Shown here piece after piece: positions 2,769 to 24,173 of a stretch of 37,820 bases of DNA (positions are counted from its first letter, which is position 1; each line of letters opens with the position of its first letter). The notes beneath the pieces were generated by a model. It made no database searches, was not told the DNA's origin, and worked only from the letters and a program-made list of their open reading frames with translations. The stretch is from IMG/VR virus record IMGVR_UViG_3300024187_000016, positions 1 through 37,820 of that record, one strand, 5' to 3'. The translations under genes and the position numbers were made by a program. The stretch comes from a virus (taxonomy: Duplodnaviria > Caudoviricetes).

Positions 2769-2963
2769 ATGGACAGTGTACCTGAGCGGCCGTTCGAGAC
2801 GATCGAGGTGGTCAACGAGCACCTCACGATCCGACGGGTCTACAAGCCAGACAAGGACCGCTGCGTCGCAGCCACCGTTCTCCTGCTGCGCGCCGCTGCG
2901 CAGGCTCGCGCTACCAGGCTCGCCCGCGAAGCCGCCGAGCAGAGCGCCGAGGCCGAGCGATGA
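2769..2963 (+). CDS. Small protein translationally coupled to the integrase
   Basis: Near-perfect SD and an ATGA overlap with the integrase start. Confidence 0.75.
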   Translation: MDSVPERPFETIEVVNEHLTIRRVYKPDKDRCVAATVLLLRAAAQARATRLAREAAEQSAEAER

Positions 2964-4723
2964 GCGCGCGGCGCGGCAGGGGCGGGCTGATCCCGCTCAC
3001 CGATGAGTTCGTGGCCTACGCCTACAAGCGCGTGTCATCCGACGATCAAGAGAAGGACGGGATGTCACTGCCGGTTCAGGACAAGGAGCTGCTGGCGGAG
3101 ATCGCCAGGCATGAGACCTGGACCTTCGGCGGGTCGTTTCAGGACGTGCAGACGGGGACCAACCCGACGCGCGCCGACTATCAGCGGATGCTTGCGGCAG
3201 CACGAGCTGCGACGGCTGCCGGCAAGCGGGTCGTTATCACGGTTGTCAGGCAGAATCGGCTCGGCCGCGACGGCGAAGAAGCGCTCCGTGCCTGGAAAGA
3301 GTTCGACCGCCTCGACGCGCAGCTCTGGGCGACCCGTGATGGTGGACACCTGGCCGATCCGCTGATGTACGGGGTTCGTGCCATCCTCGCCGAGCACGAC
3401 GTTCGTCAGATCAGCGAGAACGTCAAGGGGACATTCGCCGAGATTCGGGCGAACGGCTGGCTCAAGCCTGGCCGTCCTCGCTGGGGCTACCGTTGGGAGC
3501 CAGCGACCACGGAGCAGCGTCAGCTCCAGGGCTCGCCAATGGTGGTGCCCGTGCCGCACCCGATCGAAGCGGAGTACGTGCGTGAGTTGTTTCTCCGACG
3601 GGCTCGAGGCGAGACGATCCGCGCACTCTCAACCTGGGTACGGAGCCTGCCAGTCGCGGCTAGGGGCGAAGTTCGACGGCATAACGGGAGCATGAGCCCG
3701 CGCGAGCTCTCAGTATCCGCCGTCAAGGACGTGCTCGACTCGCCCGTCTACATCGCCAGGAATCCCGAACCTGGGCAAGACGCGCTCGACGCGCCGGTCG
3801 GCAAGTGGGAGCCGCTGTGCGACGACGTGGCGTGGCGCGCGATCCATCCGCGAACGGGAGCGCGAGAGAACGTCGTCTCGACATCGGCTCGGGGGCAGTA
3901 CGTGCTCACGGGCTTTCTGTTCTGCGAGCTCTGCGGAGCTCGGATGTGCGGGCAGCTCCAGCGTGGTGCGCGCCGCGTCCGACCTGGCCGCCGCGACACC
4001 ATCTCGTCTGATACGCGCGTCTACATCTGTACGTCACGGATGGCAGGCGCCTCGCACGGGACGAAGCCATGCTACCGGACGATCAAGGCAGACCTGATCG
4101 AGGGGCAGATCCTGGGTATCCTGGGCACGCTGCTCGATGCGCTGAAGGAGCCCGGCGTGCGTGAGGCGGTGCGGAAGGCTGCGCGAGACCTGGAGTCGAG
4201 AGATGCGGCGACGGGTGATGCGCGGCGGCTGCGAAACGCCGAGCAGGATCGCGCTGCACTGGTGGCCGAGCGCGTTGGCCTGACGCGCACGCTCTCGGCG
4301 GGCATCATCACGGGTGAGGCCTACGCCGAAGCGGTCGCGGTCATCTCCGCTGGGATCGACGCGCAGGCCGCGGAGATCGCGAGGCTGACGGCGTTGCAGG
4401 TGGGCCAGCAGCGGCGGATGGCGGAGCGGCCAGCGGTTGACGTGATCCTGGATACCGCCGAGGACTGGGCGTGGATGCTCCGAGAGGGGGCCGTCGAAGA
4501 CCAGCGCGCGTTCTTGAAGCTGGTGCTGGAGCGGGCGACGCCGAAGCGGCTCAAGCCTGGGAAGTACCAGGCGGGGATGCACTACACCGGGCTCGGGTGG
4601 CAGGTGATCGAGCTGGGGGCGGCGGTGCTGCCGTTGCTTGGCCGGGTTGAAGATGTTCAGCGGGTCTGGGCTCACTGTACGGCTTCAACCCGGCCGGACG
4701 AAGCCCTCGCCGCCGCGTCCTGA
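2960..4723 (+). CDS. int: Large serine recombinase (phage integrase)
   Basis: Catalytic motif YKRVSSDDQ..GMSL..Q, RADYQRM, RLGRD, a recombinase domain (GYRW), zinc ribbon LTGFLFCELCGARM...YIC...C, and a coiled coil. Confidence 0.95.
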   Translation: MSARRGRGGLIPLTDEFVAYAYKRVSSDDQEKDGMSLPVQDKELLAEIARHETWTFGGSFQDVQTGTNPTRADYQRMLAAARAATAAGKRVVITVVRQNRLGRDGEEALRAWKEFDRLDAQLWATRDGGHLADPLMYGVRAILAEHDVRQISENVKGTFAEIRANGWLKPGRPRWGYRWEPATTEQRQLQGSPMVVPVPHPIEAEYVRELFLRRARGETIRALSTWVRSLPVAARGEVRRHNGSMSPRELSVSAVKDVLDSPVYIARNPEPGQDALDAPVGKWEPLCDDVAWRAIHPRTGARENVVSTSARGQYVLTGFLFCELCGARMCGQLQRGARRVRPGRRDTISSDTRVYICTSRMAGASHGTKPCYRTIKADLIEGQILGILGTLLDALKEPGVREAVRKAARDLESRDAATGDARRLRNAEQDRAALVAERVGLTRTLSAGIITGEAYAEAVAVISAGIDAQAAEIARLTALQVGQQRRMAERPAVDVILDTAEDWAWMLREGAVEDQRAFLKLVLERATPKRLKPGKYQAGMHYTGLGWQVIELGAAVLPLLGRVEDVQRVWAHCTASTRPDEALAAAS

Positions 4724-4740
4724 CGTTCTGCGTCTCATCG

Positions 4741-4778
4741 AACGACCCGCCCGGCGCATCGACGCCGGACGGGTCGTT
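4741..4778 (+). terminator. Stem-loop after the integrase, between convergent genes
   Basis: AACGACCCG-C-CCGGCG-loop-CGCCGG-A-CGGGTCGTT, followed by a weak U-rich tail. Confidence 0.65.
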
Positions 4779-4895
4779 GTTCATCTACGCATAACGTGGC
4801 GGTATGGGCACTCTTGGTTCTTGGCGTTGGTGTAGTACACATGGGCTTGGCTCTAGCCGGTATGTACTTCATGACTCGGTAGATAGCTCAGTGTC

Positions 4896-5327
4896 CTAAC
4901 GAGATTCCGCCGCTTCGAGCGCCTCCCAGGCCCGGTCGGGGTCCATCGCGTCGAACCGCTCCATGATCGCGGTCCAGCGATGCGCAAGCCGTGGACTATG
5001 GAACTGGTAGTACATCGCGAGGTAGAGCAGACTGGACTCGGGATCGATCGTCGGGTCACCGTAGCCAGCCGCCTGGGCCAGGTCTCGGTAGCAATCAGCC
5101 ATGATGATCTCATCATAGCGCCTCGATCCTGATGATCCTCTCACGATACCGAACGCCAGGCGCTCCAGCGTGCGCAGCGTCACCTGGTGCCTCCCGCCGT
5201 CACGGACGTTCTCAATCGCATGCCGCGACAGCCTCGACGCTCGTGAGATGTCCGCAATCGTGACGTCGCGCAGGTCGACCCACGCGGCGTACGCCTCCGC
5301 CAGTGACCGTCGAGGCACGTTCGGCAT
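4896..5327 (-). CDS. CI-like immunity repressor (XRE HTH)
   Basis: HTH VTIADISRASRLSRHAIENVRDG...VTLRTLERLA. It is divergent from a Cro-like gene and next to the integrase. No S24 peptidase domain is visible. Confidence 0.75.
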   Translation of the reverse strand: MPNVPRRSLAEAYAAWVDLRDVTIADISRASRLSRHAIENVRDGGRHQVTLRTLERLAFGIVRGSSGSRRYDEIIMADCYRDLAQAAGYGDPTIDPESSLLYLAMYYQFHSPRLAHRWTAIMERFDAMDPDRAWEALEAAESR

Positions 5328-5397
5328 CGGGTGCTCGTTCTCTGGTGAATTGTGCAGATGAGTCTACGTGCGGCGCGTGCAACCTCCACAGTGAGTA

Positions 5398-5439
5398 GAT
5401 AGGCTACGGATTGCCTATCGGGCAACTGGTGAGTACCGT
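5398..5439 (+). promoter_or_regulatory. Lytic promoter with overlapping operator-like inverted repeats
   Basis: TTGCCT (5411-5416), 17 bp spacer, TACCGT (5434-5439). Inverted repeats GATAGGC-N8-GCCTATC (5398-5419) and TTGCC-N5-GGCAA (5411-5425) cover the -35. Confidence 0.5.
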
Positions 5440-5521
5440 AGTAAGTCCCGGTGGTAGTCAGCCGTCGTAACGCCGCATGTACCGTCGCCCGTCATGTCGC
5501 CGCTCACAGAGGACTGAACCG

Positions 5522-5761
5522 ATGGCTGTTTCGACCACGTCGCCCCTGTCATCGCTGGCGATCGTCGCTGGCCGGCTCGGCATCTCGCAGAACGAGATTG
5601 CACGGCGCACTGGCCTGTCGTATCAGACGGTCAACGATGCCTGGCACGGACGGCCGTGCACGCTCAGCACCTGGGTCAAGATCGCCAAGAAGATTCCGGT
5701 CCCGCTCAAGATGATCGCGCCGCTGGCCGCCGAGGAGCTCGACGGTCTGGTCATCGGCTAA
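5522..5761 (+). CDS. Cro-like HTH protein
   Basis: GISQNEIARRTGLSYQTVNDAWHG HTH; first gene of the rightward early operon; AGAGGA precedes the ATG at 5522. Confidence 0.8.
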   Translation: MAVSTTSPLSSLAIVAGRLGISQNEIARRTGLSYQTVNDAWHGRPCTLSTWVKIAKKIPVPLKMIAPLAAEELDGLVIG

Positions 5762-5768
5762 GGGCAGG

Positions 5769-5963
5769 ATGATGTCCGTCGCACGGAAGCCTGCTAGTCC
5801 TAGCCACGCGGCCGACGCGCGCGTCACCGCCGCGCTGGCGCAGATCAGCGATGAGGACATGGCCGCGCTGGCGCAGGCTATCGCCCGTCTGCTGATCTCG
5901 GCGACGAAGAACCGCGAGCAGCGGCGCTTGACGACGCTGAAGGAAAGCGCCGCTCGCGGCTGA
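5769..5963 (+). CDS. Small helical hypothetical protein
   Basis: Operon position and RBS; followed by the hairpin AGCGCCGCTCG/CGAGCGGCGCT (5946-5979). Confidence 0.6.
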   Translation: MMSVARKPASPSHAADARVTAALAQISDEDMAALAQAIARLLISATKNREQRRLTTLKESAARG

Positions 5964-6023
5964 CCCGACGAGCGGCGCTGGCATTCCCGGGCGACATCAC
6001 CCAGGACTGAAAGGAGAGACGCC

Positions 6024-6254
6024 GTGTCTAGCGCACCCCGCGTGCCAGTCATCCACGCCGACCTGGGCCCGTCCGCCCGCCATGCCTTCGGCCGCTGGGT
6101 GGGGAGTGTCTACGGCCTGGTGGCGCACCTCGACGTCTGCTGCTTCGGCTGCACCGCCGAGATGACGCGCTGCTCTGAGGGTGACGCGGCGGTCGACGAC
6201 GAGCAGGCGCAGTGGCAGGCCTGGCGCGCTGCGAGGGAGATCGAGCCGTGCTAG
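6024..6254 (+). CDS. Small Cys/His-containing hypothetical protein
   Basis: AAAGGAGAG RBS, GTG start, HLDVCCFGC...C motif, and overlap with the next gene. Confidence 0.65.
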   Translation: MSSAPRVPVIHADLGPSARHAFGRWVGSVYGLVAHLDVCCFGCTAEMTRCSEGDAAVDDEQAQWQAWRAAREIEPC

Positions 6255-6745
6255 CGCTGGCGGGGTACATCGGCTGCATCGTGGCCGCCAATCTGACGCT
6301 GGCGCTGGTCGGCCTGGTGCCTGTCGGCTTCGGCCTGATGGCGCCAGCTGGCGTGCTCTGGGCGGGCCTGGCCTTGACGCTGCGCGACATCACGCAGGAC
6401 CAGCTCGGCCGCTGGCCTGTTGTCGGTGCGGTCCTCGCTGGCGCCGCGCTCTCCTGGCTCATCTCGCCCGCGTTCGCCGCAGCCTCGGGCGCCGCGTTCC
6501 TGGTCTCCGAGCTGGCGGACTTCGCGGTCTACACGCCGATCAGGCAGCGTCACTGGCTGACGGCGGTGGCGCTCTCCAACTCGGTCGGACTGCTGGTCGA
6601 CAGCGTGCTGTTCCTGTGGCTCGCCTTCGGCAGTCTGGAGTTCTTAGCCGGGTTGGTGGTCGGCAAGGTCTGGATCACGCTGGCGACGGTGGCCGTGCTT
6701 GCAGTCGTTCGGAATCGGAGGCCGGCATGGCGCTTCGCACACTGA
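6248..6745 (+). CDS. yhhQ: VUT-family (YhhQ-like) preQ0/preQ1 transporter
   Basis: Multi-TM protein with VUT signatures IVAAN, PAG..WAGLALTLRD, ASGAAFLVSELADFAVY and SNSVGLLVDSVLFLWLAFG. Start placed at GTG 6248 after GAGGGA. Confidence 0.88.
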   Translation: MLALAGYIGCIVAANLTLALVGLVPVGFGLMAPAGVLWAGLALTLRDITQDQLGRWPVVGAVLAGAALSWLISPAFAAASGAAFLVSELADFAVYTPIRQRHWLTAVALSNSVGLLVDSVLFLWLAFGSLEFLAGLVVGKVWITLATVAVLAVVRNRRPAWRFAH

Positions 6746-7053
6746 GCCTTGACCCAAGTGAGAAGCCGATCTCGATCAGTCTCGCCGGTCGGCTCACCTG
6801 TCGATGTCCGATCAACGGCCGGATGGATTACGCCACCGTTGAAGTGGCGTACATCCCGACCGGCGCCGTCATGGAACTGGAGGCGTTCGCGCGCTACCTC
6901 GACGGGTTCAGCAGCCGAACAGTCTTCCACGAAACGGTGACCCAGGAGATTGCCGAGGAGGTCTACCAAGCGACCGAAGCCGACGACATCACCGTCAGGA
7001 CGCGCTGGGACGCCGTCGAGGGCATCGCTTGTACCGTGGTGGCCCACCGATGA
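6727..7053 (+). CDS. QueF-like T-fold enzyme (QueF-L, preQ0 amidinotransferase type)
   Basis: 108 aa with CPINGRMDY (catalytic Cys/Asp), YIP and FHE motifs. The NADPH-binding QueF motif E(S/L)K(S/A)hK is replaced by ELEAFAR. It is the 3' part of track ORF 6181-7053, with RBS GGAGG before ATG 6727. Confidence 0.8.
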   Translation: MALRTLSLDPSEKPISISLAGRLTCRCPINGRMDYATVEVAYIPTGAVMELEAFARYLDGFSSRTVFHETVTQEIAEEVYQATEADDITVRTRWDAVEGIACTVVAHR

Positions 7054-7733
7054 TCTGGCTCAGCGGGCAGCTCGGCACCGTGCTCGACTCCGGCCACCGC
7101 TGGGATCTGGGCGTGATGTGTCAGCCGACATCGACGGCGATTGACGGGCAACTCCGCACGATCCGTCAGAGCGGCGTCTATTGGGCCGTCGATAACGAGG
7201 CGTTTAGCAGCAAATTCAGTCCCGAGCGATGGGAAGCGTGGCTGCGCGCTGTGCCGCGCGCCACACGGCTGACGTGCCTGTTCGTGGTCGCTCCCGATGT
7301 CCTGCACCGGGATGACAACGGCAACGTCTACGGCGATCCCGAGGCCACCTACGCACTGTCACCGCGCTACTTCCCACTCCTGCGCTCCCTGGCCTACCGG
7401 GTGGCGTACGTCTCCCAGGACGGGGCTACACGGGATCTGGTGCCGTGGGATGAGATCGACTGCCTCTTCGTCGGCGGCTCTGATGCCTGGAAGTTGTCAG
7501 ACGCCAGCGTCACCCTGATCCGGGAAGCCCAGGAGCGCGGCCTCTGGACCCATATGGGGCGCTGTCAGGCCCGCGAAAGCATCGGCGGACGCATCGGAGC
7601 TGCCCACGCGCTCGGGATAGATTCGGGGGATGGCACGGTGCTGGCCCGCGACCCATCGCGACTTGGCCGCGTCGTGCGCGGCCTCGACGCCTTGAACATG
7701 CAGGCGCCGATGCTGCTGGAGGTGACAGCGTGA
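7050..7733 (+). CDS. DpdA/TGT-like guanine transglycosylase
   Basis: Ordered TGT-barrel motifs: WAVDNEAF (DSGxF-like), APDV, QDG, FVGGS, THMGR and GIDSGDGT (second catalytic Asp). ATGA-coupled to the QueF-like gene and preceded by yhhQ. Confidence 0.7.
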   Translation: MIWLSGQLGTVLDSGHRWDLGVMCQPTSTAIDGQLRTIRQSGVYWAVDNEAFSSKFSPERWEAWLRAVPRATRLTCLFVVAPDVLHRDDNGNVYGDPEATYALSPRYFPLLRSLAYRVAYVSQDGATRDLVPWDEIDCLFVGGSDAWKLSDASVTLIREAQERGLWTHMGRCQARESIGGRIGAAHALGIDSGDGTVLARDPSRLGRVVRGLDALNMQAPMLLEVTA

Positions 7734-7903
7734 TCCTGCTCGAGATCCTGCGCGGCATCGCCGAGACGATCCGCGAGACCCTGCCGAGCGACGAGCGTGA
7801 GGGCGCGGTGTTTATCGCGGCGATGGCGTGGAGCTTCGTCCTGTTCTGGGCAGCCGTGCTGATCGCGTCGTGGCTGAGCTGTCGTGGGTCGGGGAACTGC
7901 TGA
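7730..7903 (+). CDS. 57-aa single-TM membrane protein, not in the ORF track
   Basis: GGAGGTGA RBS, GTGA and TGATG overlaps on the two sides, and the hydrophobic stretch AVFIAAMAWSFVLFWAAVLIASWL. Confidence 0.7.
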   Translation: MILLEILRGIAETIRETLPSDEREGAVFIAAMAWSFVLFWAAVLIASWLSCRGSGNC

Positions 7904-8499
7904 TGCCAGTAACGGCCGAGCGTATGCTGCGCCCCGAGGCGATCGCGATTGCGAAGGCGTTCGTGGCCGAGATCGTGGACACGACCGACCAGTTGATCGT
8001 CGGGGGCTCGCTTCGGCGGCGCCTTGCGATGATCGGCGACGTCGAGATCGTGGCCGTGCCGCAGGTCGTGACTCACGAGTCGGGACTCTTCGCCGATCAC
8101 ACCGTCGAGATGGACCTGCTGGCCGGGCGCATGTCGGTCCTGCTCGATCGCGGCGACGTCAGCAAGCGCCTCGACAAGAACGGCTCGCCGCGCTGGGGAC
8201 CGACGCTCAAGTACCTGACCTACCAGGGCGCTCGCGTGGATCTTTTTTCTCCCGTAGCCGAGCGGTTCGGATGGGTCTTGCTTTTGCGTACAGGGCCTGC
8301 CGCGTTCTCGCGCCAACTCGTCGTCGAGCGCGGGCGGAAGACGAAGGACGGCCGTCCAGGCTTGCTGCCGCCGCTGATCGTGCCGCGTGATGGCTGGCTG
8401 ACGTGGCGCGTGAGCGGCGAGCGCATCGAGACCCGCGACGAGCGGACCGTGTTCGACCTGTTCAAGATGGCGTATCTCGAGCCCTGGGAGCGGACGTGA
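7903..8499 (+). CDS. Minimal X-family DNA polymerase / nucleotidyltransferase (palm and thumb only)
   Basis: GGSLRR, GDVEI (DxE), RVDLF, LLRTG and thumb motif ERTVFDLFKMAYLEPWER. No 8-kDa, fingers or PHP domain. Confidence 0.85.
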   Translation: MPVTAERMLRPEAIAIAKAFVAEIVDTTDQLIVGGSLRRRLAMIGDVEIVAVPQVVTHESGLFADHTVEMDLLAGRMSVLLDRGDVSKRLDKNGSPRWGPTLKYLTYQGARVDLFSPVAERFGWVLLLRTGPAAFSRQLVVERGRKTKDGRPGLLPPLIVPRDGWLTWRVSGERIETRDERTVFDLFKMAYLEPWERT

Positions 8500-11364: not shown

Positions 11365-11985
11365 ATGATGCCGACGGCAACCGTAGCGGAGCTCCAGGCG
11401 ATGACCGCTGAGAACCATGGCCATCAGGCAGCCGATGCTGTCCGGACCGCACCGTGGATGGTGCTGCGGGTGCCGAGCGAGGCCGAGTTCGGCGACGACG
11501 AGTTCTTCGCCTCGACGGCGCTGGCTCATCGCGCCGAGGTCCTCGAGGCGCGTCACCCCGACCTGTTCGGCCACCTGGCCGACCTCAAGGTCGTCTACCT
11601 GTGGAAAAGAACGGGCGGCAAGGCGAAGGGCAAGGGCGTCTACGGCAAGACGGCGAAGGCGTCGGGTTTGGTCAAGCACTTCTCGGAGCACGCGGCGTTC
11701 GTGATCTGGCTGGCGGCCGATCACTGCCGCGGTGCTGGCTACACCGAGCGGCAGCTCGAGGCGCTGCTGTTCCAGGAGCTGTGTCATACGACCGTCGCCG
11801 AGGTCGACGAGGAGACGGGACGCGGCGGCGGGCCAGCGCTCGTGCCGTACGACGTCGAGACGTTCCGCGCGGTGATCGAGGTCTACGGGCTCTGGGATGC
11901 CGACCTGCGTGACGTGGCGCCAGCGTTCCGCCAGGCTGGGCTGTTCGACGCGGGCGAGGAAGCCGACGCGGAGGACGATGACTGA
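11365..11985 (+). CDS. Putative phage metallopeptidase family protein with a degenerate active site
   Basis: VYLWK...GK..K..G...FVIWL...EALLFQELCH...PYDVETF..V...YGLW matches the family pattern, which normally has HELxH and HDxEEF. Confidence 0.7.
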   Translation: MMPTATVAELQAMTAENHGHQAADAVRTAPWMVLRVPSEAEFGDDEFFASTALAHRAEVLEARHPDLFGHLADLKVVYLWKRTGGKAKGKGVYGKTAKASGLVKHFSEHAAFVIWLAADHCRGAGYTERQLEALLFQELCHTTVAEVDEETGRGGGPALVPYDVETFRAVIEVYGLWDADLRDVAPAFRQAGLFDAGEEADAEDDD

Positions 11986-13235
11986 TGGCCGTTGCGCTTG
12001 AATCGCCGTCGGCAGTCATGCTGCCGGTTGAGTCGGTCCAGTTCGTCAGAGAGCTGTACCCACGGCTCCGCGAAGACGACGCCGCGATCGAGCGCTACCG
12101 CGCGGCACTCGATCGGTTACCGCCGATCATCGTCGCTCGCGGACGGGTCCTGGTCGACGGCTTCCACCGCTGGCAGGCGCACCGCCGCGAACAGGCAGAG
12201 ACGATCGCGGCGGTCGATCTCGGCGACCTGGCCGACATCGAGATTCTGAAGGAGTCGGTCCGTCGCAACTCGGGTCACGGGCGCCAGCTCGATACCCGAG
12301 ACAAAAAGCGTATGGCGGATCAGCTCTGGCGTCAGGGCGTCCGCGATGAGTCGGAATTGGCCGACCTGCTCAGCATCACGCCAAAAACCTGCGCGGAGTA
12401 TGTGCGCGGCGCCAAGCGTGACGAGCGGCAGGCGCAGAAAGAGTCGGCCTGGGATCGGTGGCTCAACTGCGAGTCATACCGTCAGATCGGCGCCGCGCTC
12501 GACGTTGACCACCAGACGGTTGCGGCGTGGTGTGGGGAATTCTCCAATCAATTGGGAAATTCCCCACCTGACTCCCGCCAGCACTTCGACGTCTGGCCGT
12601 TCGCGCAATCCGACGACGACGCAGGCGCCGCGTCGTTCTTCGGGCGGATGCCGCCGCAGGTCGTCGAGAATCTCCTCTGGCGCTACACCGAACCGGGCCA
12701 GATCGTCGTCGACCCGTTCGCGGGATCTGGGACGACGATCGACGTTGCGAAGCGGATGGGCCGGCGTGTCTGGGCGAGCGACCTGTATCCGTCGACGCCG
12801 ATGCTTCCGATCCATCAGCACGACATCGCGAGCGGCTGGCCGCCGTCCGCGCCAGGCCGTGCAGAGCTGATCGTGCTCGACCCGCCGTACTGGAAGCAGG
12901 CGGCCGGGCGCTACAGCAGCGACGAGCGCGACCTGGGAAACCAGACGCTTGACGAGTTCATGGCGTCGTGGCGCGCGGTCGTGGCGGCGTGCATGCCGCA
13001 TCTCGGGAGCGGCGGGCGGCTGGCGTTCATCGTCTCGCCCACGCACGACGGCGAGCGGGTTGTTGATCACGCGCTCGAGATGTGGTTCACCTGTCGGGAT
13101 CAAGGGCTTGCCGTTGAGCGACGGTACATCGTGCCGTACCAGACGCAGCAGGCGACCGGGCAGCAGGTCGAGTGGGCGCGCGAGCACCGTGTCGATCTGA
13201 AGCTGTATCGCGATCTCGTGGTGATGCGGACATGA
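11985..13235 (+). CDS. ParB-N / HTH / amino-DNA methyltransferase fusion
   Basis: ParB motif LPPIIV...LVDGFHRWQA, HTH SYRQIGAALDVDHQTV, MTase motif I VVDPFAGSGTT followed by motif IV LDPPYW. Confidence 0.88.
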   Translation: MAVALESPSAVMLPVESVQFVRELYPRLREDDAAIERYRAALDRLPPIIVARGRVLVDGFHRWQAHRREQAETIAAVDLGDLADIEILKESVRRNSGHGRQLDTRDKKRMADQLWRQGVRDESELADLLSITPKTCAEYVRGAKRDERQAQKESAWDRWLNCESYRQIGAALDVDHQTVAAWCGEFSNQLGNSPPDSRQHFDVWPFAQSDDDAGAASFFGRMPPQVVENLLWRYTEPGQIVVDPFAGSGTTIDVAKRMGRRVWASDLYPSTPMLPIHQHDIASGWPPSAPGRAELIVLDPPYWKQAAGRYSSDERDLGNQTLDEFMASWRAVVAACMPHLGSGGRLAFIVSPTHDGERVVDHALEMWFTCRDQGLAVERRYIVPYQTQQATGQQVEWAREHRVDLKLYRDLVVMRT

Positions 13236-14803: not shown

Positions 14804-15012
14804 TCCACCAGGACATCATGGTCTATGCCCACCCCGACGGCATCACCTACGTAGGCTGCTTCGAGGGCTCCTGGCATCGCTGGCCCGCCGTTGAGCAGGG
14901 CTGGGCAGCGCGGACGCACGGCACCGAAGCGATGGCTGCCGGCTGCGAGGAGCTTGAGCCGCGGCTGGCACGGCTCGCGCTCAGGCTTTCAGGAGTCCCC
15001 GTATGCGCGTAG
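14800..15012 (+). CDS. Hypothetical protein
   Basis: GGAGG RBS, GTGA overlap and good operon fit. Confidence 0.65.
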   Translation: MIHQDIMVYAHPDGITYVGCFEGSWHRWPAVEQGWAARTHGTEAMAAGCEELEPRLARLALRLSGVPVCA

Positions 15013-15527
15013 CGTTCGCCGACCCTCCGTACGTCGGTCAGGCGGCCAGGCACTATCGGCACGAGGCGTCCTATGCGGGCGAGGTCGACCACGCGGCACT
15101 GCTCGCCCGTCTGGGCGCCGAGTTCCCTGATGGCTGGGCGCTCTCCTGCTCCTCGCCATCGCTCAGGCTGCTGCTGCCGCTCTGCCCCGAGGACGTGCGG
15201 GTCGCGGCCTGGGTCAAGCCGTTCCACGCCTTCAAGAAGGGCGTACGACCTGCCTATGCGTGGGAGCCCGTGCTCTTTCGTGGCGGGCGGAACTCGGGCC
15301 AGCCGCCCCCGCCAAAGGGCGGCCGAGCGACCACGCCGCGGGATTGGGTGAGTGCGAATATCACGCTGCGCTGCGGTCTGGTCGGCGTGAAGCCCGAGGC
15401 GTTCTGCTACTGGCTGTTCGATCTGCTCGGGCTCAAGCGTGGTGACGACCTCGTCGATCTGTTCCCTGGAACGGGCGCCGTCAGCGACGCCTGGGCGCGC
15501 TGGCAGACGCGGTGGGATGTTGCCTGA
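15003..15527 (+). CDS. Small beta-order DNA amino-methyltransferase
   Basis: N-terminal ADPPY and C-terminal VDLFPGTG. Confidence 0.82.
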   Translation: MRVAFADPPYVGQAARHYRHEASYAGEVDHAALLARLGAEFPDGWALSCSSPSLRLLLPLCPEDVRVAAWVKPFHAFKKGVRPAYAWEPVLFRGGRNSGQPPPPKGGRATTPRDWVSANITLRCGLVGVKPEAFCYWLFDLLGLKRGDDLVDLFPGTGAVSDAWARWQTRWDVA

Positions 15528-21174: not shown

Positions 21175-21566
21175 GCGAGCGCGTGGAGCGCAACTGCCGT
21201 CACTGTGGCCGCGTGACGATGATGTCTCGGTACGTCCGGTATCGGTACCAGCATTGCGAGCCGTGCCAGACGGCGTACCGCGTGCGCCTGTTTCGCCTCG
21301 AGGCTGCCTTGGCCACACGGTATCCGCGACTCATGGAGAGCGGCCTGGGGAAACGGTGCATCAGGCCGCTCGCATCGGCGTACGCCTGGGAGGGCATCGA
21401 GGGCGTGGCCGCGGCGCACGATGCAGCACTGCTTGTGATCGAGGACTTTGGGCCGCGCATGTTGGCCGTCTTCCGCGCAGCATGTCCTCCGCCGCCGGCC
21501 GAGCGCACCTGGGCGCCAGAGCCAGACTGGGCCGAGCACGCGGCGATGGTGGCGCTGGGATCATGA
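21171..21566 (+). CDS. Zinc ribbon fused to an RNA polymerase alpha-CTD-like helical domain
   Basis: CRHC...CEPC, then SGLGKRCIRPL...GIEGVAAAHDAALLVIEDFGPRMLAVF, which parallels the alpha-CTD/HhH pattern L..R..N.L...I......LL.I.NFG.KSL. Confidence 0.55.
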   Translation: MSERVERNCRHCGRVTMMSRYVRYRYQHCEPCQTAYRVRLFRLEAALATRYPRLMESGLGKRCIRPLASAYAWEGIEGVAAAHDAALLVIEDFGPRMLAVFRAACPPPPAERTWAPEPDWAEHAAMVALGS

Positions 21567-22207
21567 ACGGCCGTCGGCTGGTCTCCGTCATCACGCCGAC
21601 CTGGCAGCGTGCGGAACTGCTGGCCGCCGCAATCCAGAACGTTCGCCTGCAGACGTACCGGCCGCTCGAGCACGTGATCGTCTCCGACGGCGACGATCGC
21701 GAGACGGCCCGCGTGGCGGTCTCGGCGCTCGATTGCGCGCTGTTCTCCGACCCGAGCCGAGATGTCCGCGTCCGCTACGTGCCGCTCGGCCGCAACTGGT
21801 CGTCGTTCCTGCCGGCGTCGTTCGCCGCCGCCCCCATGACGGTCGGCATGTTGCTCGCCTCCGGCACGTATCAGACCTGGCTTGCCGATGACGAGTGGAT
21901 GACGCTTGATCACATCGAGGGCCTGGTCAACGCCCTCGAAGCGGCCGACGCCGACCTGGCCTACAGTCGCGTCCGCATGTACCGCAACGGCTCTACCCCA
22001 GATCAGGGGTACGATATCGGCACCGAGCCGCCGGAGCTCGGGCAGATCACGAATGTCCTCTACCGCGCGGAGTTGCTCAAGCATGGCCTCTACCCGTTCG
22101 GCGCTGGCATGACGTCGGACTGGGCGTGCATCGAGCGCTGGCTGGCCGCTGGCGCGCGCTGCGCATTCGTGCCGCGCGTGACGCTCACGCACCGGGTGGA
22201 TCACTGA
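21563..22207 (+). CDS. Glycosyltransferase family 2 (GT-A)
   Basis: LVSVITPTWQR..LL...I..V..QTY..LEHVIVSDG, a DxD-like WLADDE, and SDW. Confidence 0.9.
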   Translation: MNGRRLVSVITPTWQRAELLAAAIQNVRLQTYRPLEHVIVSDGDDRETARVAVSALDCALFSDPSRDVRVRYVPLGRNWSSFLPASFAAAPMTVGMLLASGTYQTWLADDEWMTLDHIEGLVNALEAADADLAYSRVRMYRNGSTPDQGYDIGTEPPELGQITNVLYRAELLKHGLYPFGAGMTSDWACIERWLAAGARCAFVPRVTLTHRVDH

Positions 22208-22398
22208 TGGCCTTCGAGAAACTCAGCATTACCCTCGAGGTCGGCGAGTACGAGGCGCTCTCTCAGCTCGCAGAACGGGAGCTGCGCTCAATACCACAGC
22301 AAGCACGATTCCACATCCGCGAGGCGCTTATCGCCGCGGGCCTGCTCACTCCAGGGGGCGCCGTCACGTGGTCGCGCTCGATTTCGTCGGATCGCTGA
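22207..22398 (+). CDS. Ribbon-helix-helix (Arc-like) regulator
   Basis: KLSITL strand followed by YEALSQLAERELRSIPQQARFHIREAL; TGATG coupling. Confidence 0.7.
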   Translation: MAFEKLSITLEVGEYEALSQLAERELRSIPQQARFHIREALIAAGLLTPGGAVTWSRSISSDR

Positions 22399-22399
22399 C

Positions 22400-23050
22400 A
22401 TGGCGAGCTGGACCGAGGCGAAGGCGGTGATTGGCACCGAGCGCGTGCTGCTCGGGCCGCAGGCGTCGCAGCAGTGGCTCGCGGCGCCCGAGCATCTCGC
22501 GATGGTGCTGGCCCGCTACCGCGCGGCGGCGGCCCTGATCGGCGGGGCTGATCACGTGCTAGAGGTAGGCTGCGGCGAAGGGATCGGGGCGCGCATCCTG
22601 GCGGACGGACGGTCGTGGTATGTCGGCATCGACACCGATGGGGACGCGATCCAGGTCGCGCAGTCGCACGATCTGTCTGACACGACGGAGTCGCTCTTCC
22701 AGCAGCGCGACGTCGGCGTCGTTGAGCCCGTGGACTACGATGCCGTCGTCGCGCTCGACGTCATCGAACACGTCCAGGACGGCACGGCGTTCCTGCGCAC
22801 GCTCGCCGAGCATGTGTCACCGCACGGCGTCTGCGTCATTGGCACGCCGAGCGCGCGCTTCGACCACCTGGCATCGCCGCAGAGCCGGAGCGGCCACGTC
22901 GCAACGTACACCCACGACGAGCTGTACGAGCTGATGGAGCATCACTTCCGCGTCGTCCAGTCCTTCGGCATGCAAGACACCGCGCTGCATCTCGGGCACC
23001 CCGAGGCGCGCCACTACCTGCTCATGTGTGGGATCGGGCCCCGTGGCTGA
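22400..23050 (+). CDS. Class I SAM-dependent methyltransferase (non-DNA type)
   Basis: ARY, VLEVGCGEG, YVGID, YDAVVALDVIEHV and G...IGTP motifs. Confidence 0.92.
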   Translation: MASWTEAKAVIGTERVLLGPQASQQWLAAPEHLAMVLARYRAAAALIGGADHVLEVGCGEGIGARILADGRSWYVGIDTDGDAIQVAQSHDLSDTTESLFQQRDVGVVEPVDYDAVVALDVIEHVQDGTAFLRTLAEHVSPHGVCVIGTPSARFDHLASPQSRSGHVATYTHDELYELMEHHFRVVQSFGMQDTALHLGHPEARHYLLMCGIGPRG

Positions 23051-24173
23051 GCGATTGACGGGGCCGCGCATGTTGGGGCTCGTCGGCGATATGTCTGGGC
23101 CGAGTCTGTGGCGCGTGCTCCAGCCGTTCACGGCGCTCCAGGCCGCGGGCTACCCGTGCGGCTGGGATCGGAAGGACGCGCCCGGCATCGGGGAGATCGC
23201 GCCGGCCTTCGACGGCTTCGTGCTGCCGCGCATGTCCTGGCCGCCGCCTCAGCGCCGGATTGCCGAAGCCTGGTTCGCCGCCCTCAGAGCGGCCAGGCGC
23301 TTCGTGGTCTACGATGCGGATGACGACGTCTTCACCAGTCAACTGTCGTTCAGAACGATCGAGCTCGGCTGGTCGGAGGGCAAATCCTTCCCCGAGCTCG
23401 AGGCTGAGCGCTTTCAGCGGATCTGGGCCATGCAGCAGTGTGACGGCGTCACCGTCAGCACGCAGCGGCTCGCCACGGTCGTCCGTAGCTACACGGACAA
23501 GCCCGTGATCGTCGTCCCCAATGCGATTGACGTTCCGTGGTTCCGGCGCGTTCTGGGGGCCACCACGCGCCAGCAGCACGGACTGACGATCGGCTGGGCC
23601 GGCGGGCGTCGGCCGGATGCGGACCTGGCGCCGATGGCCGCGGCCTGGGGGCGGATCGCTCGGCGGTTTCCAGCTTGCCCCGAGCGAGGAACGAGCCGAG
23701 GGGTGACGTTCGTCGTCCAGGGCCATGTGCCGGCCGTCGTCACGGAACAGGTGCCGGCTGAGCGCCTGGTCCTGCTGCCGTGGATGCCGCTTGAGCAGTA
23801 CCCGGCCGGGCTCAAGGAGATCGACATCGGCTGTGCGGCCGTCACCGACGATCGCTTCAACCGCTGTAAATCGACGATCAAGGCGATGGAGTACGCCGTC
23901 GCGGGCGCGGCCGTGGTGGCGACGCCAACCGTCTACGGCAGCATCATCGAGCACGGCCAGAACGGCTACCTGGCCGAAACGGCCGACGAGTGGGAGCACG
24001 CGCTCTCGGAGCTGGTCTCGCGGCCAGCGCTGCGCTCGATCATGCGGACCCGGCTGCGCAAGCGCGTGGAGCGGAAGCATAGCCTGACGGCGAATCTCTG
24101 GCGCTGGCCTCAAGCCTGGCAGACGATCGCCGAGGATGCGAGAGCCCGCCGGGGACGGTTGGTGACGGTGTGA
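23043..24173 (+). CDS. GT-B (family 4-like) glycosyltransferase
   Basis: VVYDADDD, CDGVTVST..L, VVPNAID, IGWAGG, FNRCKSTIKAMEYAVAGAAVVAT and IEHGQNGYL. Confidence 0.9.
   Translation: MAERLTGPRMLGLVGDMSGPSLWRVLQPFTALQAAGYPCGWDRKDAPGIGEIAPAFDGFVLPRMSWPPPQRRIAEAWFAALRAARRFVVYDADDDVFTSQLSFRTIELGWSEGKSFPELEAERFQRIWAMQQCDGVTVSTQRLATVVRSYTDKPVIVVPNAIDVPWFRRVLGATTRQQHGLTIGWAGGRRPDADLAPMAAAWGRIARRFPACPERGTSRGVTFVVQGHVPAVVTEQVPAERLVLLPWMPLEQYPAGLKEIDIGCAAVTDDRFNRCKSTIKAMEYAVAGAAVVATPTVYGSIIEHGQNGYLAETADEWEHALSELVSRPALRSIMRTRLRKRVERKHSLTANLWRWPQAWQTIAEDARARRGRLVTV
23673..23703 (+). repeat. REP-like short repeat inserted in frame in the GT4 gene
   Basis: GCTTGCCCCGAGCGAGGAACGAGCCGAGGGG encodes ACPERGTSRG and interrupts RRFP-x-VTFVVQG. 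It resembles the GC(T/C)TGCCCTGAGC...GTCGAAGGG repeat type. Confidence 0.65.

Follow-up and report, generated by a model that had tools for sequence, protein, structure and literature searches.

Among the phages surveyed in Hutinet 2019 (PMC6884629), group 3 was defined by DpdA alone, with or without the transporter YhhQ, and included 7-11, Orion, phiLM21 and CDKM15; Supplementary Data 1 of that survey already listed DpdA with YhhQ and without biosynthesis genes in phiLM21, CDKM15 and eHP-6. Other phages, namely 9g and Vid5 (Gat-QueC) and nt-1 (ArcS), are described as synthesising 7-cyano-7-deazaguanine (preQ0) themselves and as reaching archaeosine (dG+) in DNA after DpdA-type insertion. QueF and QueF-L proteins have the Cys/Asp thioimide in common, with hydride as the nucleophile in QueF and ammonia in QueF-L, and conversion of preQ0 to G+ in tRNA with NH4+ was demonstrated for QueF-L (PMC5485725). 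Here, a three-gene cassette was analysed in a soil phage, IMG/VR virus record IMGVR_UViG_3300024187_000016 (Duplodnaviria; Caudoviricetes), using the whole stretch of 37,820 nucleotides as the window. The cassette is predicted to encode a YhhQ-family transporter (gene 1), a QueF-fold (T-fold) protein (gene 2) and a short DpdA-like transglycosylase (gene 3). The trio is probably a salvage-type deazaguanine DNA modifier. The fuller salvage reading, with dG+ as the product, has somewhat less than an even chance, and dG+ is the best single guess.

Like the DpdA-only phages and Pantoea phage MED16, the window contained a transglycosylase without preQ0 synthesis, implying host or imported precursor, and YhhQ adjoins DpdA in phiLM21 as the transporter does here. 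Unlike those phages, the window adds a T-fold gene, and unlike the listed DpdAs its transglycosylase forms a shorter, separate branch with Gln in place of the DpdA1 His and no tblastn link. The end product predicted for the window is that of 9g, Vid5 and nt-1, which, in contrast, make their own preQ0 and use Gat-QueC or ArcS. A first-pass annotation of this DNA had described three overlapping genes, placed near the start of an early lytic operon, as YhhQ, QueF-like and DpdA-like, with no folE, queD, queE or queC. Open reading frames (ORFs) and tblastn agreed with that layout: eight FolE/QueD/QueE/QueC/DpdA1 queries from phages Sonali and SHIN8 gave no match in the window at E <= 0.1, and the three assignments were upheld by the evidence given below. 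Genes 1 and 2 overlapped by 19 nt and genes 2 and 3 by 4 nt, and sites resembling ribosome-binding sites preceded genes 1 and 2. An identical protein was recorded on a 39,727-base contig, so up to ~1.9 kb of the phage may lie outside the window, a length that would probably be insufficient for four biosynthesis genes.

The novelty of the locus is the lysine-less QueF-fold partner, not the phage lifestyle. Gene 2 matched Pfam QueF (PF14489; E 4e-15) and scored 62.7 bits against TIGR03139 QueF-II, under the 86.9-bit cut-off. Its best PDB sequence match was Pyrobaculum calidifontis QueF-L (5JYX; E 8e-10), which was also its top fold match, with QueF nearly tied. The protein retained C27 and D34 (the thioimide Cys and Asp), E50 and the base-binding H68-E69; in close homologues C27, D34 and H68 were invariant and E69 was present in 16 of 17. 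The QueF NADPH motif, E(S/L)K(S/A)hK(L/Y)(Y/F/W), was taken from Cui 2023 (PMC10516641). Both of its lysines were replaced in 17/17 close homologues, RGG was absent too and acidic residues had been gained, which bears out the earlier claim of a QueF-like protein without an NADPH motif. E50 aligned with the first Glu of the motif, and an invariant Glu98 occupied the Gly position of the QueF RGG. The best 150 profile matches gave 153 aligned rows. Of these, 63 of the 66 rows with neither lysine also lacked RGG/RGN, and 65 of the 74 rows with both lysines had RGG/RGN; the window protein belonged to the class with neither. Some archaeal QueF-L homologues likewise had the Glu and lacked the first motif Lys (L183 and L193). 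At L178, L183, L187, L189 and L193, archaeal QueF-L homologues of a second type were seen, in which the first QueF-motif Glu is retained as in the phage proteins.

The window protein resembled 5JYX in length (~108 aa), in its unimodular T-fold, in keeping the Cys/Asp/His-Glu and Glu46 positions and in the loss of the NADPH-motif lysine and RGG. It differed in sequence (30% identity), in its acidity and in having no Tyr90; 5JYX acts on tRNA, and the window protein, in its bacterial-phage context, would use DNA or free base. Gene 2 is predicted to encode a QueF-L-type enzyme. To our knowledge, QueF-like enzymes without NADPH-binding residues have been characterised so far only in archaeal tRNA modification. 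The Pfam QueF match, E50 and the near tie in the fold search would also fit a T-fold protein that remains an NADPH-dependent nitrile reductase through other residues, giving dPreQ1 as for the Dp-1 and HVTV-1 proteins first named QueF-L, and earlier phage QueF-L predictions proved wrong. This is very improbable here, since the Dp-1 and HVTV-1 proteins keep the motif (HVTV-1 both lysines and RGG; Cui 2023, PMC10516641), whereas in the window protein the two lysines and RGG are gone and acidic residues have been gained.

Gene 3 had no Pfam or NCBIfam match and matched PHROG 15826 (unknown function) at E 1e-38. Its tblastn relatives in actinophages carry the annotation 'DpdA-like tRNA-guanine transglycosylase'. 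This SEA-PHAGES label, used for cluster P mycobacteriophages, Aoka gp40 and Sonali gp81 (PHROG 15826), covers the same family at 38-43% identity; it is annotation only, and the neighbouring genes are labelled 'membrane protein' or 'hypothetical'. The gene 3 model was a (beta/alpha)8 TIM barrel (predicted local distance difference test, pLDDT, 95.4), the fold expected beforehand. Its top three Foldseek matches were tRNA-guanine transglycosylase (TGT), although fold searches fail to separate TGT from other TIM barrels. D48, D83, Q123, G142, G143, H168, R171 and D194 were invariant in 92/92 homologues, the aspartates stood at TGT/DpdA motif positions, and DSSP placed the invariant motifs where barrel strands end on their C-terminal side. 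The two catalytic Asp, the base-binding Asp, the Gln and the Gly-Gly that mark the TGT/DpdA superfamily were all present in order. The matching TGT residues we take to be D102, D156, Q203 and D280 in Z. mobilis numbering. With hhalign, the gene 3 family aligned to a MED16-type DpdA profile (prob 89%; DNG/PD/HxxR/DS aligned) and to a DpdA1 profile (prob 84%; DSG/LD aligned), both profiles being small; against TGT the motifs were in register and the score was non-significant.

Searches with the gene 3 protein and its profile gave nothing credible in the PDB, and a Pfam scan of the 92 homologues gave no match to TGT (PF01702) or DUF6610. The nearest Pfam-bearing ESM cluster of gene 3 was DUF6610 (DpdA4; 0.91). 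The family hidden Markov model (HMM) had no match in the three genomes encoding the DpdA2-4 of KVP40, phiST and HVTV-1. Scores against single DpdA2-4 sequences (KVP40.0122, phiST CGPG_00065 and HVTV1_69) were at most 0.5% in hhalign, a single-sequence format too insensitive to show separateness, as DpdA1 also reached only 3%. Across the loci scanned, the DpdA1 HMM matched none of the gene 3 family members and the MED16-type HMM matched two; MED16 DpdA itself matched the family only at E 7e-5. MED16 DpdA has DNGAF and HxxR motifs in common with the window family. The TGT-Gln position was Gln in 92/92 homologues and His in SHIN8-type and MED16-type DpdA, a site that is presumably His196 of Hutinet 2019. 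Gene 3 likely encodes a short DpdA-like guanine transglycosylase, distant kin of DpdA1 on a separate branch (~200-230 aa), in line with the short, divergent enzyme first proposed. A caveat raised with that proposal, DNEAF where Gly is usual, proved minor: Glu occupied the site in 23/92 homologues, the preceding residue was Asn in 81/92, and MED16 DpdA has DNGAF. The branch is widespread among phages and uncharacterised, and two published surveys did not contain the examples looked for. At L009, L012 and L057 the gene 3 family adjoined QueC/QueE/QueD and was the sole transglycosylase detected there, which indicates that this family can be the inserting enzyme. Short gene 3 family enzymes also occurred besides DpdA1 and a full preQ0 pathway in SHIN8 (gp36/gp35, L083:6708-7300, split in two pieces), R29Z (L086:4767-5351), Sonali (gp81, L085:6902-7519) and L032.

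A target other than phage DNA would suit parts of these data: host tRNA could be modified, or deazaguanines could be imported and sequestered to disturb host systems such as type IV CBASS (cyclic oligonucleotide-based antiphage signalling system), whose Cap10 is described as having a TGT fold and binding a deazaguanylated protein (bioRxiv 2025.04.06.647259). QueF-L is known to act on preQ0-tRNA, Gln123 is TGT-like and unlike the His of DpdA1, in the fold search Cap10 reaches scores similar to those of TGT, with the catalytic Asp kept, and the gene 3 family coexists with DpdA1 in some phages. This explanation is nonetheless quite unlikely. The Zn motif CxCxxC, present in the TGT alignment, was found in 0/93 gene 3 family sequences, profile links lead to DpdA rather than TGT, DNA methyltransferases are among the neighbours, and 12/14 isolate hosts of transporter-bearing prophages lacked TGT and with it a Q system that could be altered. 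A DNA target is also favoured by a window without tRNA genes and by the neighbours of the gene 3 family, which comprise early phage genes and DNA methyltransferases.

Gene 1 matched Pfam Vut_1 (PF02592) at E 9e-10 (39.5 bits; family cut-off 27.2) and phrog_4899 at E 7e-36, and scored under the TIGR00697 equivalog cut-off. Its product was mostly hydrophobic by hydropathy and was 44-47% identical to Aoka gp38 and phiLM21 YP_009221497, the phiLM21 match being 47% over 73% of the length; YP_009221497 appears as YhhQ in the Hutinet 2019 list (PMC6884629). It is predicted to be a Vut_1/YhhQ (QPTR)-family membrane protein that imports a 7-deazaguanine base. Reported cargoes of the family are preQ0/preQ1 or queuine, with a specificity that varies and is unreadable from sequence (PMC11130926).

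The recurrence of the three genes was followed in loci carrying the gene 3 family, viral (best 80 of 509) and prokaryotic-genome (best 80 of 189), with flanks of 5-6 kb and neighbours counted within 1.5 kb. Transporter neighbours were found in 66/80 viral and 40/80 genome loci. T-fold neighbours were found in 7/80 viral and 5/80 genome loci, scored with a profile built iteratively and partly from the same loci, so that these scores are partly circular. One of these loci, L088, was identical to the window; this short contig in a genome bin was dropped from clustering and not counted as host evidence. At 90% identity the loci formed 131 clusters: 80 contained a transporter, 11 a T-fold gene, nine both, eight biosynthesis genes (QueC or another) and 42 none of these. 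The order transporter, T-fold, transglycosylase occurred in 8/11 T-fold loci, and also in L203 and the cultured Arthrobacter phage Aoka; recurrence in the same order places the trio beyond chance. In Aoka (ON755180; L082:3044-4528), gp38-40 formed the whole trio in the order of the window. There gp38 is annotated as a membrane protein and gp39 as hypothetical, and here gp38 was recognised as the transporter and gp39 as a QueF-fold protein without the lysines. The announcement of Aoka, in the portion available, is silent on both genes and reports the phage as probably lytic (PMC10586098).

A T-fold alignment scan of viral contigs found no relative. The metagenome scan gave four loci, the record of the window itself (L202) and L203-L205, apparently one related cassette. 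Three T-fold types, all without the NADPH motif, filled the same slot beside the transglycosylase. Unannotated mini QueF-fold genes of ~80 aa overlapped or abutted a MED16-type DpdA in Microcystis phage Mae-JY30 (L208:1315-2231) and Pseudomonas phage Epa33 (L209:1995-2965), which suggests that a T-fold partner is common to several DpdA branches. The 'QueF-like protein' of Helicobacter phage record PQ159904 (22465-22743) weakly matched the T-fold proteins of the window and Aoka.

Import and insertion would be the same if the T-fold protein were dispensable or served only to bind or store the base, and the DNA would then carry dPreQ0, or dPreQ1 if that were imported. This is unlikely. In 120 of the 131 clusters no T-fold neighbour was detected, cluster P mycobacteriophages carried only the transporter and the transglycosylase, and the mini homologues at L038 and L051 lacked the catalytic Asp. 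Weighing the other way are the invariance of C27, D34 and H68, the near-invariance of E69, and the three types in one slot, suggesting selection for activity.

The salvage logic of the first-pass annotation was supported by gene content: the transporter occurred in 0/6 loci with QueD/QueE/FolE vs 105/153 without (Fisher p 0.0013), with loci that were not fully independent and a weak QueE match at L122. Nine of 14 isolate hosts of transporter-bearing prophages had neither full-length QueC nor TGT (drafts may miss genes), so the modification would depend on environmental precursor. A contrast in host TGT (2/14 with the transporter vs 11/19 without, p 0.015) was set aside, as nine of the 11 were Nocardia and the comparison by genus gave 2/12 vs 2/6 (p 0.57). 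At L020, L022 and L023 (5001-6650), a transglycosylase occurred with QueC and a transporter and with no QueD/QueE/FolE in the locus, a gene set that would fit import of 7-carboxy-7-deazaguanine (CDG).

In the proposed pathway, the YhhQ-family protein would import preQ0, the short transglycosylase would exchange some guanines of phage DNA for preQ0 after replication, and the T-fold protein would form a thioimide at Cys27 and release an amidine with ammonia, giving dG+. We infer every chemical step, including the ammonia step and its action on free base or on DNA, as well as the transported substrate, the DNA target and any benefit against restriction. Several observations weigh against this reading. 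In a tree of 108 columns with 44/77 forks open, the T-fold clade of the window stood apart from archaeal QueF-L in no supported joint clade; in the same tree the 80-aa mini type clustered with archaeal rows (Shimodaira-Hasegawa-like approximate likelihood ratio test, SH-aLRT, 91). The window protein was more acidic than archaeal QueF-L. At the position of QueF-L Tyr90, which we take to be an ammonium-site residue, the window clade had Val/Glu, the Aoka type Ala/Thr and the mini type His, as aligned by eye around a one-residue insertion. SHIN8 was a counter-example to the exclusion of the transporter from biosynthesis loci. Finally, the known substrate of QueF-L is preQ0-tRNA (PMC5485725).

Attack on the preQ0 thioimide by water or by an organic amine, possibly on the free base before insertion, would instead yield dADG (2'-deoxy-7-amido-7-deazaguanosine) or a new N-substituted amidine. 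The acidic T-fold surface, the invariant Glu98, the absence of a Tyr90 counterpart and of a supported grouping with archaeal QueF-L, and the origin of the nearest DpdA with measured DNA in a dADG phage are all compatible with this. It is unlikely, as ammonia is the sole non-hydride nucleophile shown for the T-fold (PMC5485725), and the dADG phages MED16 and 7-11 had no match to these T-fold genes, which indicates that dADG needs no T-fold gene. MED16 DNA, with dADG at 0.13%, was digested by the enzymes that were tried (PMC8306585). Restriction protection should not be assumed for the window phage, because MED16, whose DpdA is the nearest relative, has only trace dADG and is unprotected.

The idea that such a system is unusual in a temperate phage did not hold, given the DpdA-YhhQ pairs listed without biosynthesis genes in Hutinet 2019, a gene 3 family present in 189 prokaryotic-genome stretches and a probably lytic Aoka. 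The full-text literature searched contained no paper on the trio, and subscription papers and further supplement parts may bear on it. We take phiLM21, HK106 and BTP1, all in the Hutinet list, to be temperate phages. The parts of the Hutinet 2019 and Cui 2023 tables covered contained no row with DpdA, YhhQ and a QueF-type gene without biosynthesis genes. According to Cui 2023 (PMC10516641), no phage QueF aligned with QueF-L, and DpdA1-4 were taken to cover the known modified phages. A QueF-L-type amidinotransferase acting on DNA outside archaea, with an overlooked short DpdA branch and an importer, is tentatively suggested as a third route to phage dG+ after Gat-QueC and ArcS. If so, phage DNA chemistry would be set by deazaguanines from other microbes, even in hosts without a queuosine pathway. 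The cultured phage Aoka, which has the whole trio and grows on a laboratory host, makes the idea directly testable, including whether a T-fold enzyme gives DNA archaeosine or some new base. An answer would bear on how DpdA-only phages manage in hosts unable to make preQ0, and would yield a toolkit of 1.5 kb with which deazaguanines could be placed in DNA.

Features of the window are listed in Table 1. The window contained tailed-phage genes for terminase, portal, protease, capsid and tape measure, and the phage is likely temperate, judging from its serine integrase gene. The trio formed ORFs 4-6 downstream of the Cro-like gene, beyond the integrase. An Rfam scan gave no match, preQ1 riboswitch included, and a sigma-70 promoter search of 4700-8000 gave none.

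Table 1. Coordinates of the cassette genes and other features in the window.
Feature	Position	Strand	Details
GTG-start ORF, transporter gene (gene 1)	6248-6745	+	165 aa; GAGGGAG 8 nt upstream
ATG-start ORF, QueF-fold gene (gene 2)	6727-7053	+	108 aa; GGAGG 5 nt upstream
ATG-start ORF, transglycosylase gene (gene 3)	7050-7733	+	227 aa; ATGA overlap
Serine integrase	2960-4723	+	PF00239 and PF13408
Divergent ORF	4896-5327		No PHROG match
Cro-like helix-turn-helix (HTH) gene, head of the rightward early run holding the cassette	5477/5522-5761	+	Weak phrog_3 repressor match, E 8e-4
Short PolX/beta-family nucleotidyltransferase-like gene	7903-8499		PF14791, weak PF14792
ParB-like/N6-N4 methyltransferase fusion	11985-13235		
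Second small methyltransferase-like gene	15003-15527		
Family 2 glycosyltransferase (GT2), S-adenosylmethionine (SAM) methyltransferase and GT1-like glycosyltransferase genes	21563-24173		Portal-protease interval

The nucleotidyltransferase-like gene lay directly downstream of the cassette and was not seen as a recurring neighbour at the related loci. The two methyltransferase-like genes are likely further anti-restriction genes. The glycosyltransferase set in the portal-protease interval possibly serves virion glycosylation, presumably in parallel with that of mycobacteriophage Che8.
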